The translations under genes were made by a program, and so were the position numbers. The notes beneath the pieces were generated by a model. It saw only the letters and a program-made list of their open reading frames with translations. It had not been told where the DNA came from and did not search any database. A stretch of DNA of 64,000 nt from a virus: the IMG/VR virus record IMGVR_UViG_3300036770_008715, positions 32,001 to 96,000 of that record. The stretch is one strand, 5' to 3'. This document shows, in pieces, positions 6,615 to 13,521 of the stretch. How positions within the stretch are numbered: position 1 is the stretch's first letter; each line of letters opens with the position of its first letter.

Positions 6615-6829
6615 GCAGCTTCCCTCTTAATTTCCCAAGCCCAGTTTACCGCGCACCAATCAACAATGCATCGATCTTTCGAAAGTTTAGCAATGTTCTC
6701 TCCACGTTTAATCATTCGCATACACCAATCATCCCAATACTCTTTAATAATTTCTTCCTCGCTCAGAGTTACTTCTACAGATTGGCCAAACGCATCATCA
6801 GCTGGTATGATATACCTATAATACCTCAT
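6611..6829 (-). CDS. hypothetical protein between gp55 and gp47
   Basis: 72 aa, Trp-rich (EYWDDW, DWCAVNWAW), start and stop overlap both neighbours. Confidence 0.75.
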   Translation of the reverse strand: MRYYRYIIPADDAFGQSVEVTLSEEEIIKEYWDDWCMRMIKRGENIAKLSKDRCIVDWCAVNWAWEIKREAA

Positions 6830-7332
6830 TCTGATTCCCCTTTCAACTTTTTTGTTTTGACAGAAGTTTCATAGTTCTCAATAAACGCTGAAATATTATC
6901 ATACAGTTCAAACTGTCTGTTAACACCATCAGCATCTAGTTGATTGAATTCATCAATAACACCAGACATCTCTGCTGACTTGTACTTGACATAGAGTTGT
7001 TTCTTCTCGCGTTGTATCCGCCTCAAGAATGCATAATATACTATTTGAGTGAAATAAGCAAATGGATTACTGGATTTTGTTGGGTCGAAGTTGTCAGCAT
7101 AGAGCACACAGTTTTCAATAGCATCGGAAATCATTTCATCACGAAAAGTATAAGAGATAAAGTTGGGCTTATGTGATAGGTTCTCAGCTATCATCATGAA
7201 ACACTTCCCAACATACTCAGGAATCCGAGGCTTCTGTTTGTTGGCTTCTTTAGCTTCCTTGATCTTATCCTTGTATGCAATCATTTCTTTCAGGAACATT
7301 GAATTGTCAATATAATGCGTTCTTTTCTTCAT
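6826..7332 (-). CDS. gp55: late transcription sigma factor gp55
   Basis: HYIDN, IAENLSHKPNF, DEMISDAIENC, NPFAYFTQI..AFLRRIQREKKQ motifs. Confidence 0.96.
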   Translation of the reverse strand: MKKRTHYIDNSMFLKEMIAYKDKIKEAKEANKQKPRIPEYVGKCFMMIAENLSHKPNFISYTFRDEMISDAIENCVLYADNFDPTKSSNPFAYFTQIVYYAFLRRIQREKKQLYVKYKSAEMSGVIDEFNQLDADGVNRQFELYDNISAFIENYETSVKTKKLKGESE

Positions 7333-7778: not shown

Positions 7779-9229
7779 TATTGGATCTCCACTTTCTTTG
7801 TGCTGATTGGGAACTTTTCTTCGTTGTACATTTTAATACGTTCCTCAAAGTGTTTCAATGCAAAGTTCACATTACTTTTATATCGCAAATCATCTGCTAT
7901 ATCGTAGAGCACTGCTTGCTCTTTATCATCACCTAAACGTAAACCTCGACCAATAGACTGAAGGCTTCTAATTCTGCTCTTCGTTGGTGACGCGAAGATA
8001 ATATTATGGAGGTTCCTTATATTTATTCCAGTAGAAAAGGTGCCATACGAAGCTATGATAATTGCATCTTTTTCTTTCTCAGTAATATGACGGATCTCTT
8101 CTCTATCCATCACATCAGTTGATCCGCATACAAAAAATATTTTTCTGTTGTAGTTCTTTTGTTTGAACAGTTCGTGTAATACTTTACCATGCTTTTCAAC
8201 ATAGGTGTAGAGGATTAGAGTGTTGCCTTCAAGACTAGCAGCCAGTCCACGAATAAATTTATTACGCTCTTCATTTGATACAAGGAAATCCATCTCTTCT
8301 GGATAAGTCATACCGCGAACATGTTTGCAAACAGCTTCAGGATACTTGAGTATCATACACTTGATTGCAAAGTTTGCTAGGTGTTTCTGTTCAATCAGTT
8401 CTTTGGTTGTGACAATCTTTTTTACTGGACCAAACAATCCTTCAAGAACTAGTTTGTTTACTTTAGTGCCATCAAGTGTACCTGTTGTACCAATACGATA
8501 GTCGCAGTTAATCAGTTTGGTCATAATATCAGTAAGTGACTTGGCCTTGAATGTATGAGCTTCATCGCCGATCACATAATCAAACTTCGAAAAATATTTT
8601 TTTGGCATATCGTAGATTGATTGCCAAGTTGAAATGATTACAGGAGCAAGTGGTTCTTTCTCTCGCCCCTGATAAATTTTCTGGCAGTAGTTTTCTGCAT
8701 CCCAACCATAGGATTTAAAGTCGCCATACATCTGCTCAACAAGTGATACAGTTGGCACAATCAACAGACCTTGCTTTTTACCAAGAGCCATGAGCTTACG
8801 GATGATCAGATAGATGATAAGAGATTTGCCTGATGCAGTTGGTGAAATAATTACTGCTCTTTTCTTTGTTGCTGAGTAGCCAAAGGCAGTTAGCTGATAA
8901 TCTCTTGGCGCAAAAGGCAGACCGAGTGTATCAACAAAAGAAAGATCTATTGGAGTTTTGCCGAAGTAATTGGTGTTATCTTCAACAGGATACTCATTGA
9001 TATTACAGAACTCGATGATGTATGGGACTAGACCAGCATATATTTTTCTAAACCTATAATTAAAAAGTTTGATAGTACCATCCCAGTGTTTATTTCTATA
9101 TGCAGGAGAAAATTTTGCATTTGGTACTTGAAATGTAAAAAATTGATTTAATTCCATTGCAATAGAATCTTCACAATCTACATGACAATAGATATTGTCT
9201 ATTTTATTTATTTGTATCTGTATTTCCAT
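7778..9229 (-). CDS. uvsW: UvsW SF2 RNA-DNA/DNA-DNA helicase
   Basis: PRDYQ Q-motif, SPTASGKS, DEAH, GTTGT, FSTGINI, QSIGRGLR. Confidence 0.96.
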   Translation of the reverse strand: MEIQIQINKIDNIYCHVDCEDSIAMELNQFFTFQVPNAKFSPAYRNKHWDGTIKLFNYRFRKIYAGLVPYIIEFCNINEYPVEDNTNYFGKTPIDLSFVDTLGLPFAPRDYQLTAFGYSATKKRAVIISPTASGKSLIIYLIIRKLMALGKKQGLLIVPTVSLVEQMYGDFKSYGWDAENYCQKIYQGREKEPLAPVIISTWQSIYDMPKKYFSKFDYVIGDEAHTFKAKSLTDIMTKLINCDYRIGTTGTLDGTKVNKLVLEGLFGPVKKIVTTKELIEQKHLANFAIKCMILKYPEAVCKHVRGMTYPEEMDFLVSNEERNKFIRGLAASLEGNTLILYTYVEKHGKVLHELFKQKNYNRKIFFVCGSTDVMDREEIRHITEKEKDAIIIASYGTFSTGINIRNLHNIIFASPTKSRIRSLQSIGRGLRLGDDKEQAVLYDIADDLRYKSNVNFALKHFEERIKMYNEEKFPISTKKVEIQ

Positions 9230-9702
9230 GGTTGTACTTTTTTCATCCTTATAGACCTTTTCTCACTATCTGCTAATGCTGCGGCTTTCATTTTTTCTCT
9301 AACTTCTGGCCTTTTTGCAGGGTTTTTGTCTCCTAGAGTTCCGCATTTTGAATGATCTCTGTTGAATCTTCCTTCATCCCACGCTTTTTTTATCTGTTCT
9401 CCACATTTTTTCCTATCGACTCTAGAAGAAAATTCTCGCTGTTTCTTTGCATCTTTAAATACGCAGTTGGACCTTCCTCTTTTCCATCCTTCTGGTATCG
9501 TCTCAAAATTAAAAATATAATTGTCGACAGTCCCATTAGTTATCCATATTTTACCACTAGTGGTCGATCCGCCCAATGAGGTTTTCTTTGAGTCTTCTGG
9601 TATCTTATCCAGTTCCTGATCGCTGAGTGAAGGCATTTCTTCGAAAGGTATTTCTAGAATTTCGCAAAGGTTTTGCGAAAAGTTGTATGTATAAATAGAC
9701 AT
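9208..9702 (-). CDS. homing-endonuclease-like protein with NUMOD-type DNA-binding motifs but no recognisable nuclease domain
   Basis: ATG at 9702 with TAAGGAG SD; KIWITNG...IPEGWKRGR and GDKNPAKRPEVREKM motifs; sits between uvsY and uvsW and overlaps the uvsW start. Confidence 0.65.
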   Translation of the reverse strand: MSIYTYNFSQNLCEILEIPFEEMPSLSDQELDKIPEDSKKTSLGGSTTSGKIWITNGTVDNYIFNFETIPEGWKRGRSNCVFKDAKKQREFSSRVDRKKCGEQIKKAWDEGRFNRDHSKCGTLGDKNPAKRPEVREKMKAAALADSEKRSIRMKKVQPWKYRYK

Positions 9703-9769
9703 GCTGGCACTCCTTACAGTGTTAGAGTCCCTGGGAATTGCAGTTCCGCGAGGGACATCTCTATTTATA
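9690..9769. ncRNA. structured leader / putative antisense RNA flanked by convergent late promoters
   Basis: TATAAATA on + at 9690-9697 and on - at 9769-9762; stems GTCCCT/AGGGAC, GGAA/TTCC and CTGGCACT/AGTGTTAG. Confidence 0.55.
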
Positions 9770-9775
9770 AAATAT

Positions 9776-10240
9776 TTAATGCTGACCATGTATAAACTTT
9801 TCCCAAGACATATATTCTTTTAATTGCCATGTTCGATTGTTCAATTCTTTCATCACATTTACACAAAATGCAGCTGCTTCTTCGTGGTAACTTTTCTTAG
9901 CCTGGAGCCTAGTCAAATCATCATCACCTTCAAGATGCATTGCTAGATCTTGCTTGAGTACAAACGGAAACTGTTCCCAGCCATACTTATCAAGTTCTTC
10001 CTGAGAAAGTTTTCCATTGTAATACATCCACTTCAGTTTTCTTAGTTTGTTGTACTCAATAGCAATTTTCTTAGCAGCAAGATTGTGGGCTGAAAGAAAC
10101 TTATTGTATTTGTTGTGGAGAATAGGAATACGAATGATTTCTTTTCCAGGTTCAGTGGAATCGACATTTGAGTCTTTGGTCCACTCACTCATAATTTGTT
10201 CGATTGCTACAGCTTCAAGTTTCATAGTCAAAACATCCAT
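9776..10240 (-). CDS. uvsY: recombination mediator UvsY
   Basis: W..DS.VD...IPILHNKY, KWMYYNGK, NNRTWQLK..W.KF pattern; upstream of uvsW; true start may be 10225. Confidence 0.9.
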   Translation of the reverse strand: MDVLTMKLEAVAIEQIMSEWTKDSNVDSTEPGKEIIRIPILHNKYNKFLSAHNLAAKKIAIEYNKLRKLKWMYYNGKLSQEELDKYGWEQFPFVLKQDLAMHLEGDDDLTRLQAKKSYHEEAAAFCVNVMKELNNRTWQLKEYMSWEKFIHGQH

Positions 10241-10255
10241 CTTGAATTTATCCCA

Positions 10256-10284
10256 AGTATACTATAAATTATATTTTATGTCAA
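10256..10284 (-). promoter_or_regulatory. sigma70-type promoter for uvsY-uvsW
   Basis: TTGACA (10284-10279)-17 nt-TATACT (10261-10256). Confidence 0.8.
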
Positions 10285-10285
10285 G

Positions 10286-10831
10286 TCAAACTCTTTCGAT
10301 GTCGTAATAGGAGAACCTGAACGTAGCATCTGATGTAGTGATGACATCAGCTGTATCACCTGTATTGAACAGAATAGATCCAACAGATGTGGGAAATACA
10401 TCTTTAAATTTCACTCTGAAGTTTACATTATTTTTATTTGTATACACTGTAAGTGTAGCATCAGTATATTGAGGAGGAAGTCTGTTTGCTCCTCTGTATG
10501 CTGCAGTTGATGATAGCCTCTCCAGTTCACGATACTCTTTAAAGTCAGTTGGGAAACACATTGCCCGAATCCAGTCATGGAGTGATTGCCAGCCTCTAAG
10601 ATTTTCATCTACAACAAACGTGACATTAAACGTATCATACATCATCTTTTCGCCTGGAACATACAAATCAATGAATGGAGTATTGCGCGGAACTTCAGAA
10701 AGAGATACGCCAGGCAAGTTAGCAGTCTGACAGAAAAACGTAATGTTCTCAAGTCTAGTGAAATTGAGTCTGAACTTAGTTGTTTGTAGAATATCTTTGT
10801 TGAGAGGATTTCTTACTGCAACGTTAGCCAT
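10286..10831 (-). CDS. gp3: tail tube terminator / tail completion protein gp3
   Basis: FFCQTANLPGVSL, FVVDENL..W..LHDWI, DATL, F.DVFPTS; follows gp23. Confidence 0.88.
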   Translation of the reverse strand: MANVAVRNPLNKDILQTTKFRLNFTRLENITFFCQTANLPGVSLSEVPRNTPFIDLYVPGEKMMYDTFNVTFVVDENLRGWQSLHDWIRAMCFPTDFKEYRELERLSSTAAYRGANRLPPQYTDATLTVYTNKNNVNFRVKFKDVFPTSVGSILFNTGDTADVITTSDATFRFSYYDIERV

Positions 10832-10855: not shown

Positions 10856-10863
10856 TATTTATA
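10856..10863 (-). promoter_or_regulatory. T4-type late promoter for gp3
   Basis: TATAAATA just after the gp23 terminator. Confidence 0.8.
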
Positions 10864-12299: not shown

Positions 12300-13487
12300 T
12301 CACTTAGGAAGCGTTTTGGTTATAGCTTTAACATAATAATCCATTGCACCGCTAACCTCCTGGTCATCAACCGTTTCAACCGCAGTGACAGGAGCTTCGC
12401 TTCTGGCAGCTTTGGTTGGGAAGTAGCTCTCGCGAATCACTGCGAGCTTCTCCGTATACTCACCCTCTGTGGTGAACTCAACGCCCTCTGCGAGCGACTT
12501 TATCTTCTGAACCTGCATTTCTGTGAGTCCTTCACAGGTGCGGCGAAGAATTTCGACAGACTTAGACTCATTGAGTTGCTTTTCGAGTTGCTCCATCTGG
12601 CCAAGAGCTTCTTCAAGCAGCCCTTCAGCTTCGACGACTCGACCAGCCATTTCTTCAACGAGGTCAGCCTTTTCTTCGGGAACTTCGATATAATGTTCCA
12701 CGAAGAGATTCTTGAGACCATTGATGAAGTCTTCGGCAATTTCAGCGCGAAGGCCAGTTTCAATGGCTACTTGGTTTTCTTTCATCCACTGCTCAACAAC
12801 ATAGTTGAGATACTCATCAACTTGCTCGGAGAGTTGAGCCTGGATAGCTTCGATTTCAGAAGCAACTTCTTTCTCATTCTCTTCGGCGATTTGATGGACG
12901 ATTGTTTCTACGCGTGCACGAACAGCTGCTTCGAAGATCGTGGTCGCCTTGGTGCGGAACTCTTCGGAGAGTGACTCGCCATTGAAGAGTGCATCAACGT
13001 CTTCTTTGCAAGAACCCATGCTGGAATCAACCATGCCTTTCATCTTAGCCTTACGCGCTTCGATGATTTCTTCTTCGGTCAGTTCGGGGAGTTGCTCGAC
13101 TTCTTCTTGCTCAGCGACAACTTCTTGCGCTTCTTCTGATTCAAGCTCAGCGAAAAACTGCTCGCGCTCTTCGTCAGTTAGGCTCTCAAGGAACTGCTCA
13201 ACTTCTTCTTCGGTGAGCTCTTGCTCTTCCTCAATAACTTCTTCCGTTGACTCAACTTCGTCTTCGGCGAGCTTTTTCATTGGCTCAGAAGTAGCGCCTT
13301 CTTTGCCAGGCTTAGGTGCTTCTTTCTGCTTGCCAGCAGCTGTAACGCCAATAGCAGTTGGCTCGGTTGTTGGCGTTTGTCCGCCAAGTTCTTCGGCGTC
13401 GCCTGGACCCTTTTGCATTGGATCCTTTGCTTTGCCGAGTGTTTGGCTAAGGATTTCAGCGGCAGATTCTGTGAGAGACTTGCTCAT
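12300..13487 (-). CDS. gp22: prohead core scaffold protein gp22
   Basis: Acidic coiled coil; LSEEF..KA.TIFEAAV, VDEYLNYVVEQWM.EN. Confidence 0.95.
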   Translation of the reverse strand: MSKSLTESAAEILSQTLGKAKDPMQKGPGDAEELGGQTPTTEPTAIGVTAAGKQKEAPKPGKEGATSEPMKKLAEDEVESTEEVIEEEQELTEEEVEQFLESLTDEEREQFFAELESEEAQEVVAEQEEVEQLPELTEEEIIEARKAKMKGMVDSSMGSCKEDVDALFNGESLSEEFRTKATTIFEAAVRARVETIVHQIAEENEKEVASEIEAIQAQLSEQVDEYLNYVVEQWMKENQVAIETGLRAEIAEDFINGLKNLFVEHYIEVPEEKADLVEEMAGRVVEAEGLLEEALGQMEQLEKQLNESKSVEILRRTCEGLTEMQVQKIKSLAEGVEFTTEGEYTEKLAVIRESYFPTKAARSEAPVTAVETVDDQEVSGAMDYYVKAITKTLPK

Positions 13488-13513: not shown

Positions 13514-13521
13514 TATTTATA
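13514..13521 (-). promoter_or_regulatory. late promoter for gp22-gp23
   Basis: TATAAATA upstream of gp22. Confidence 0.8.

Follow-up and report, generated by a model that had tools for sequence, protein, structure and literature searches.

The element at positions 9686-9775 of the window, by which we mean the whole 64,000-nt stretch analysed here (part of the 140-kb IMG/VR record IMGVR_UViG_3300036770_008715, which is estimated to be 78% complete), is a copy of a portable cassette for gene control, approximately 90 bp long. The phage from which the window comes is T4-like, and judging from the relatives of the element, the cassette stands before hundreds of free-standing genes for homing endonucleases, or for proteins that resemble them, in T4-like phages that are aquatic and uncultured. 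Such endonucleases are the foremost selfish elements in T4-like phages, and to our knowledge the controls of these genes are gene-specific mRNA hairpins and autorepression. The conserved fold of the cassette lies on the strand opposite the gene. On balance, the cassette probably specifies a late-promoter-driven antisense RNA of about 65 nt that would cover the leader and the Shine-Dalgarno (SD) sequence of the gene, joined by a weaker start-codon mask of the T4 type on read-through mRNA.

In the window, the element is bounded by an inverted repeat of 14 nt (13 of 14 bp formed, 93% complementary, with a spacing of 52 nt), which makes an unusually good helix. Each arm holds a copy of the late-promoter motif TATAAATA, and the two copies face each other (Table 1). 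The plus-strand copy is written into the first codons of the gene, as codons 2 to 4 (TCT ATT TAT) and the first base of codon 5 are its complement. This layout had been described in full by an initial annotation made from the letters of the window, and it holds up. The motif occurs nine times in the 64-kb window, where 3.95 +/- 1.84 copies are expected. Eight of these are on the minus (coding) strand, including one at 10856-10863, shortly upstream of the start of the tail-tube open reading frame (ORF) at 10831, and one at 13514-13521, shortly upstream of the start of a 395-aa ORF at 13487, both of these ORFs being late structural ones; the sole plus-strand copy is the one inside the element. 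No sigma-70-like site was found within the element.

Two hairpins lie between the arms, and they are referred to here as P1 and P2 on the mRNA strand and as P1' and P2' on the plus strand. P2' is a full stem of 8 bp (9704-9711 with 9718-9725) that closes the loop CCUUAC and includes two G.U pairs. These become A.C mismatches on the mRNA strand, where the SD hairpin P2 has 4 bp only. The second hairpin also has an extra U.G pair on the plus strand that is an A.C mismatch on the mRNA strand, so that both strand differences seen by the initial annotation are real. The same annotation had drawn attention to the sequence CUCCUUA in the SD hairpin as the anti-SD of 16S rRNA. The identity is true, but its significance is trivial as the sequence is merely the complement of the gene's own SD, and the "anti-Shine-Dalgarno" emphasis adds nothing over ordinary cis-antisense complementarity. 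The plus-strand fold of the 90 nt reaches -30.0 kcal/mol (z -3.84, with none of 200 shuffles as good), and that of the minus strand -25.5 kcal/mol (z -2.96). The predicted antisense RNA of 66 nt (9703-9768) folds into exactly these two hairpins and a free tail at -23.7 kcal/mol.

Table 1. Features of the cassette and of neighbouring genes in the window.
Feature	Positions	Strand	Remarks
Sense late promoter TATAAATA of the inserted gene	9762-9769	-	predicted mRNA start G9756, the first base of hairpin P1
Antisense late-promoter motif TATAAATA	9690-9697	+	predicted RNA start G9703
Shine-Dalgarno AAGGAG	9710-9715	-	7 nt before ATG; read from the sequence
Hairpin P2'	9704-9725	+	would be the 5'-most hairpin of the antisense RNA; complementary to the SD region
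Hairpin P1'	9727-9756	+	6-bp outer stem, one pair between single-base bulges, 4-5 bp inner stem
U-rich tail after P1'	9757-9775	+	terminator-like; complementary to the A-rich sense promoter
Outer inverted repeat P0	arms 9756-9769 and 9690-9703	-	promoter pairs with AUG and codons 2-4 on uvsY read-through mRNA
Perfect 9-bp hairpin, 3-nt loop	9660-9680		within ORF codons 8-15; terminator-like in plus-strand scan
Inserted 164-aa ORF	9208-9702	-	ATG 9702-9700; overlaps uvsW start
UvsW helicase	7781-9229	-	
130-aa ORF		-	listed between gp55 and UvsW
gp55 late sigma factor	6829-7332	-	
UvsY	9779-10240	-	
Tail-tube protein ORF	start 10831	-	listed after UvsY
Major capsid protein		-	listed after the tail-tube protein

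The element is far from unique to this phage. A protein search with the 164-aa ORF led to two viral contigs (L003 and L004) in which the same leader stands before related ORFs at other locations, namely behind gp55 in L004 and behind another gene in L003. Pattern scans of IMG/VR gave 47 contigs with 17 nt across the start codon, at least 120 viral contigs with a pattern made of the SD hairpin only, which covers neither repeat arm, and at least 120 contigs, many of them new, with a third pattern in which the hairpin columns were left free. The two larger scans are partly independent. More than 170 distinct related sequences conserve the element, and a chance origin is thereby excluded. On the mRNA strand, the 5' part of the consensus reads nATAAATA, followed by 3-5 nt ending in TG and by P1, which is made up of a 6-bp stem, C-R-C opposite one base, and a 4-bp stem. 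The 3' part is made up of CTCTAA, P2 carrying AGGAG, CAGC, and ATG-nnT-ATT-TAT. The complement of this last stretch is a second late-promoter motif that points back towards the first.

All ORFs preceded by the cassette start with M-x-I-Y, and their median length is 185 aa. They belong to several GIY-YIG subtypes, at least two HNH types, a type with NUMOD3 repeats only, and the nuclease-less type of the window. Because M-x-I-Y is common to unrelated protein families, the first four codons belong to the cassette and not to the proteins, and the combination of unrelated gene families with different genomic contexts makes the cassette portable or mobile. Both the association with homing-endonuclease-like ORFs and the mobile module had been raised as possibilities in the initial annotation. 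Two or three cassette-headed genes are carried by 29 of 219 fragments, each of at most about 15 kb (e.g., L084, L114, L120, and L143), from which it follows that some phages hold many copies. When further copies were sought in the window and in the whole 140-kb record, one cassette copy was found.

Among 185,579 prokaryote species genomes, the cassette was found on three contigs only (L225, L226, and L227), all of them from metagenome-assembled genomes, and these may be phage DNA that has been mis-binned. The three are labelled Bacteroidetes, Geobacteraceae, and Luteolibacter, and two of the contigs are only about 2 kb long. As for described RNAs, no Rfam match at E <= 10 in the region 9000-10400 overlaps 9686-9775. 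Five matches elsewhere in that region were rejected as chance-level small nucleolar RNA or microRNA hits far under their gathering scores, and the one to TtnuCD16 falls inside the ORF. Searches of GenBank phages by blastn with three family members, and with 1.2 kb around the element, returned no true match. The covariance model of the cassette found nothing in S-PM2, the Pelagibacter phages Mosig and HTVC008M, or Synechococcus phage DSL-LC03, a weak negative given so few genomes.

The strand on which the fold is maintained was read from covariation. The main alignment holds 124 unique copies, and the same 19 pairs were counted on each strand; a second, independent alignment holds 53 copies that failed the pattern of the first. 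Homologues with covarying stems, implied by the structured element of the initial annotation, are present in large numbers. Both RNAalifold and direct counting find changes on both sides in 10 of the 11 pairs of P1 and in several inner pairs of P2 (58/75, 59/74, and 60/73). The covariation score is 0.49-0.56 versus 0.15-0.21 for shuffled alignments (none of 500 as high), and it collapses once the partners are slid by 1-3 columns. Across the 124 copies, the antisense strand has 98.5% of its cells paired (P1' 97.4%, P2' 100%) and the mRNA strand 87.4% (P1 95.2%, P2 76.6%).

The difference arises from the kind of mismatch that is tolerated. At pair 59/74, where all four combinations were allowed by the search, the mRNA strand has C-G in 38 copies, U-A in 35, C.A in 51, and U.G in none. 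Pair 60/73, equally free, has G-C in 78, A-U in 43, A.C in 3, and G.U in none. The same holds in P1, which was unconstrained: the bulge-flanked pair 29/47 is G-C in 83 copies, A-U in 16, A.C in 25, and G.U in none, and the outer stem has 14 A.C and no G.U. An A.C on the mRNA strand is a G.U on the other strand, so that these compensatory intermediates keep the antisense strand paired. The C.A types are found together with 25 different P1 stems and are therefore not one inherited accident. The 53 additional copies show the same asymmetry, with 878 Watson-Crick cells and 98 antisense-only versus 3 mRNA-only wobbles (45 antisense-only wobbles when the invariant pair 57/76 is left out), as well as new covariation at 58/75 and 22/53. 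In terms of energy, P2' has a mean free energy of -6.7 kcal/mol in its antisense form versus -2.6 kcal/mol on the mRNA, and the antisense form is the more stable in 124 of 124 copies; for P1' the means are -10.6 and -9.7 kcal/mol, respectively. The preference for the plus strand, which the initial annotation had put forward on the basis of G.U against A.C, is thus found for both hairpins. Each of the computational checks that the annotation suggested has turned out in its favour. Pair 57/76 of the SD hairpin stands somewhat apart: it is A.C on the mRNA strand, and G.U on the antisense strand, in all 177 of 177 copies, and it is never Watson-Crick even where column 57 is free to vary. This invariant wobble may be a recognition feature.

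The promoter motifs are kept together with the fold. In the 124 copies, the sense-promoter position is occupied by TATAAATA (43 copies), xCTAAATA (34), GATAAATA (22), AATAAATA (5), or CATAAATA (2), and 18 copies have none of these. The antisense motif NATAAATA is present in 91 of 124, and in 101 of 124 its end and the start of P2' are a constant 6 nt apart. It is retained in front of unrelated protein families, and some copies without a sense promoter still keep the antisense one, for example both copies in L120. T4 late transcripts begin 6-7 nt after the last base of the promoter motif. With the motif in the -10 position (PMC7892883), the antisense RNA would begin one base before the hairpin, at G9703. 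On the sense side, a 5-nt spacing that would put the mRNA start at the first base of P1 is found in 67 of the 124 copies. A U-rich tail, taken as at least 5 T in an 8-nt window beginning 0-2 nt past the stem, follows P1' in 113 of 124.

Two further candidate features of the antisense strand were considered and set aside. A conserved small antisense ORF starting from the palindromic CATG was rejected, with its frame stopped at scattered positions in 67 of 124 copies. A YUNR U-turn in the P2' loop, a hallmark of antisense RNAs, occurs in 71 of 124, which is about what the SD complement leads one to expect and is uninformative.

The outer repeat has to be considered separately from the inner hairpins. 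Its 3' arm (9690-9703) covers the AUG and codons 2 to 4 only, and the SD (9715-9710) sits in the separate hairpin P2. The stop codon of uvsY is only 6 nt from the promoter, which makes read-through plausible. Two convergent late promoters necessarily give an inverted repeat, however, so the repeat alone is no proof of a mask. Over the family, the arms, through the variable bases that adjoin the promoters, pair with their own partners at -6.05 kcal/mol versus -5.09 kcal/mol with shuffled partners (none of 300 as good), a small effect among related sequences, and in 82 copies versus 36 it is the mRNA strand that gives the outer duplex its greater stability, likewise among related sequences. The better pairing with own partners and the preference for the mRNA strand suggest some selection, in addition, for masking of the start codon on read-through RNA. 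The sequestration of the start codon proposed in the initial annotation thus receives positive support, although it is weaker than that for the antisense fold. The reverse possibility, that the plus-strand promoter is a mere shadow of the read-through mask, did not survive the strand test as a sole explanation.

These features can be combined into a mechanism. Late in infection, RNA polymerase with gp55 would fire from both promoters, which lie about 60 bp apart. The minus-strand promoter would give the mRNA of the 164-aa insert, starting at about G9756 at the foot of P1, and as this mRNA would retain a weak P2, its SD would be accessible. The plus-strand promoter would give an RNA of about 65 nt from approximately G9703, made up of P2' with the SD complement in and beside its loop, P1', and the U-rich tail. 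Every base of the mRNA leader, from the start of the transcript up to the nucleotide that precedes the AUG, would have its complement in such an RNA, and pairing between the two would block the SD. It is possible that the duplex is then exposed to RNase III and that head-on transcription across 54 bp adds interference. Earlier in infection, read-through RNA from uvsY would be kept silent by the outer helix, in which the promoter sequence pairs with the AUG and codons 2 to 4. The activity of the plus-strand promoter, the 3' end of its RNA, and the repression of the gene are what we infer from these sequence features.

Several points weigh against an antisense RNA. Its ends are predictions from promoter spacing and a U-rich tail only, and the tail in the window is interrupted (AUCUCUAUUUAU) and begins 1-2 nt past the stem, so that termination could be weak. 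Both promoters are of the late class, and the logic of making the mRNA and its antisense RNA together is inferred. An arm that pairs with ATAAATA itself reads ATAAATA on the other strand, and the sequence of the downstream arm alone therefore proves neither a promoter nor a mask. Covariation of this arm with the CTAAATA-type sense promoters is impossible, as it would bring in TAG as an in-frame stop, and its absence is uninformative. With regard to the strand counts, the loop-closing pair of P1 is an exception with 15 mRNA-only wobbles versus 4 antisense-only. Parts of P2 were fixed by the searches themselves, CTCTAA and CAGC by the first pattern, CAG and GGAG by the second, and GGAG (the SD) in both. 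The aligned sequences are related, so that the counts are not independent events. Finally, the source phage of the window is uncultured.

The same features could also be explained with no antisense RNA at all, by an mRNA leader that consists of a late promoter and a structured 5' untranslated region. P1 would then stabilise the mRNA, P2 would present the SD, the repeat would only mask the start codon on early or middle read-through, in the manner of T4 I-TevI, segB, e, and soc, and the plus-strand TATAAATA would be a by-product of the arm that pairs with the promoter. Late promoter, hairpin, and start codon are laid out as they are in the T-even phages (PMC2988022), and similar metagenomic leaders are so interpreted in the sections of Dassa et al. 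2009 (PMC2677866) that describe them. The better pairing of the arms with their own partners and on the mRNA strand, as well as the predicted mRNA start at the first base of P1 in the 67 of 124 copies with a 5-nt spacing, would also be expected of such a leader. It does not explain, however, why the inner hairpins tolerate A.C and show a near-total absence of G.U on the mRNA strand, or why P2 has been kept perfect on the opposite strand when on the mRNA it is weak (-2.6 kcal/mol). The fixed distance between the antisense ATAAATA and P2', and the persistence of this motif in copies that have no sense promoter, are equally unexplained, and the outer helix on which the mask would depend has a mean energy of only about -6 kcal/mol. 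We consider a leader of this kind unlikely to be the whole explanation.

Folding on the antisense strand would likewise be selected if the plus-strand structures were a one-way terminator or insulator, shielding the upstream host gene from antisense transcription that begins within or past the endonuclease gene, without any regulatory pairing. P1' and its U-rich tail are terminator-like on the plus strand in the 113 of 124 copies mentioned above, and the terminator scan of the window lists the tail on this strand only with an alternative 5-bp stem at 9743-9756. An insulator would have no need to overlap the SD and start region in every copy, though, and it leaves unexplained both a second conserved hairpin, P2', that has no U-tract and a conserved promoter motif 6 nt before it, so that we regard it as quite improbable. 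Least probable is that the conserved fold is one of plus-strand single-stranded DNA and not RNA, for instance in a recombination or replication intermediate of a cassette that is clearly mobile among contexts and gene families: DNA hairpins tolerate G.T too and strand asymmetry alone cannot separate RNA from DNA, but a promoter motif with constant spacing and a U/T-rich tail fit a transcription unit, and we know of no homing step of free-standing endonucleases that requires a DNA hairpin.

If the antisense RNA is taken as the probable product of the cassette, its nearest mechanism is the RNA-OUT/RNA-IN system of IS10/Tn10, in which a small, stably folded cis-antisense RNA holds down the transposase. 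In both, the antisense promoter lies just inside the 5' end of the gene and converges with the gene's own promoter, and the RNA is complementary to the ribosome-binding region, although for the cassette the promoter is a motif match only. Both also have a secondary structure on the antisense strand, conserved here to the extent of 98.5% versus 87.4% of cells paired, and a defined 3' end, represented in the cassette by the U-rich tail motif only (113/124). The two share no sequence or structural homology, and the cassette promoters are phage late promoters. The cassette RNA would further differ in having two hairpins and a tail that is the complement of the sense promoter, and its targets would be homing endonucleases and not transposases. 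As there is no Rfam match, RNA-OUT is an analogue and the cassette is not a member of its family.

The nearest precedent in a phage, as far as the summary in PMC2984593 goes, is CfrI of the T4-like cyanophage S-PM2, a transcript antisense to the gene of a homing endonuclease (Millard et al. 2010, via PMC2984593). As described there, CfrI is expressed together with its free-standing endonuclease gene, a parallel to the late pair proposed here, but it is about 225 nt long and connects the endonuclease gene with psbA. In S-PM2 the covariance model has no match, and the cassette is thus not CfrI.

Control by a hairpin and a late promoter is established for I-TevI, I-TevII, I-TevIII, segB, and mobE of Aeh1 (PMC2988022). 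In these T-even masks, as in the cassette, the late promoter lies directly upstream of the endonuclease gene within the 5' arm of the helix, and the 3' arm lies over the translation start. The 5' arm should be missing from late transcripts, and here too the spacing predicts a start at G9756, downstream of the arm. The 3' arm of the T-even masks occludes the ribosome-binding site, whereas that of the cassette covers the AUG and codons 2 to 4 and not the SD. The cassette helix in addition encloses two covarying hairpins whose conservation fits the opposite strand, and in contrast to the gene-specific hairpins of the T-even phages it is part of a conserved cassette common to unrelated nuclease families.

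Conserved hairpins in front of endonuclease genes are also described for the marine metagenomic loci ("fractured genes") of Dassa et al. 2009 (PMC2677866). The sections of that paper that deal with these loci report hairpins before the start codon in 15 of 16, ten loci with TATAAATA, two conserved and mutually complementary motifs, and endonucleases of different families. There, the hairpins are interpreted as translational hairpins of the mRNA, and those sections make no mention of an antisense promoter, a strand test, or a small RNA; the comparison with the cassette is one of descriptions only. A link to the gp41-1 fractured gene of that study was sought through a short intein motif, which was not found in the cassette loci. 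Other short modules that combine a promoter with a stem-loop are the PeSL and PmSL elements of T4-type phages, which flank variable genes and are thought to aid modular shuffling (PMC2839356, PMC4122927). PeSLs have early promoters of the sigma-70 type and PmSLs have middle promoters of the Mot type, each with a terminator stem-loop, and they are not linked to endonucleases (PMC4122927). The cassette resembles them in being a short conserved module of promoter and stem-loop, and differs in having late TATAAATA-type promoters on both strands and in including the SD and the first four codons.

An antisense RNA encoded in this way would have consequences beyond the window. One portable two-promoter cassette would supply the promoter, leader, start codons, and antisense RNA to GIY-YIG, HNH, and nuclease-less genes alike, and the uncultured phages that abound in aquatic habitats would have in it a general system for controlling such genes. 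It would also offer a clean case from nature of G.U/A.C asymmetry at work, in which a single piece of DNA encodes a hairpin that is stable in one of its transcripts and weak in the other. A bolder proposal, which we put forward as doubtful, is that the cassette is a self-contained, horizontally exchanged module of promoter, antisense RNA, and four codons that has been grafted onto unrelated nucleases, and that its RNAs act in trans on all other cassette-headed genes of the cell. Action in trans is conceivable because the 5' hairpin and SD region are near-invariant among copies. It would provide a form of copy-number control, and in a mixed infection a resident phage could silence the homing endonucleases of an incoming rival. 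The covariance model is ready for use in annotating cassette-headed genes.

All genes around the element are on the minus strand. The major capsid protein of the phage is 58-59% identical to the capsids of Pelagibacter myophages and of Kyanoviridae cyanomyoviruses. The 164-aa protein looks like a homing endonuclease, with no Pfam or PHROG family and no recognisable nuclease domain found in it; its residues 44-151 share 56% identity with the C-terminal portion of a 224-aa ORF in contig L001 that occupies the same uvsY/uvsW junction. L004 comes from a phage related to that of the window, and its uvsY and uvsW genes overlap with no insert between them, which identifies the 164-aa gene and its leader in the window as an insertion. 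A 43-aa acidic N-terminal module (MSIYTY...SDQELDKIPED) is common to the whole subfamily of cassette-headed ORFs to which this protein belongs, where its fusion partners are DNA-binding parts of various kinds, namely a WITNG...IPEGW region or NUMOD3 repeats. The 164-aa protein may be a nuclease-less derivative, or it may be the partner of a nuclease supplied in trans.

Positions 1480-3402 of L001 hold two endonuclease-like genes around uvsY. The first is a cassette-headed GIY-YIG gene on the opposite strand (cassette at 2144-2232), and this orientation directs its antisense promoter towards uvsY. The second is the 224-aa ORF between uvsY and uvsW, which has no cassette.

The hairpin at 9660-9680, which the initial annotation had placed beside the element, is present in the window and is outside the family cassette, as the ORFs behind the cassettes differ. 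On the plus strand it lies just upstream of the antisense promoter, and close relatives of the ORF retain only part of it. A further outer inverted repeat (9670-9684 with 9795-9809, 15 nt, 87%) joins the 3' end of uvsY to codons 7-11 of the insert and extends the read-through fold in the minimum-energy structure.

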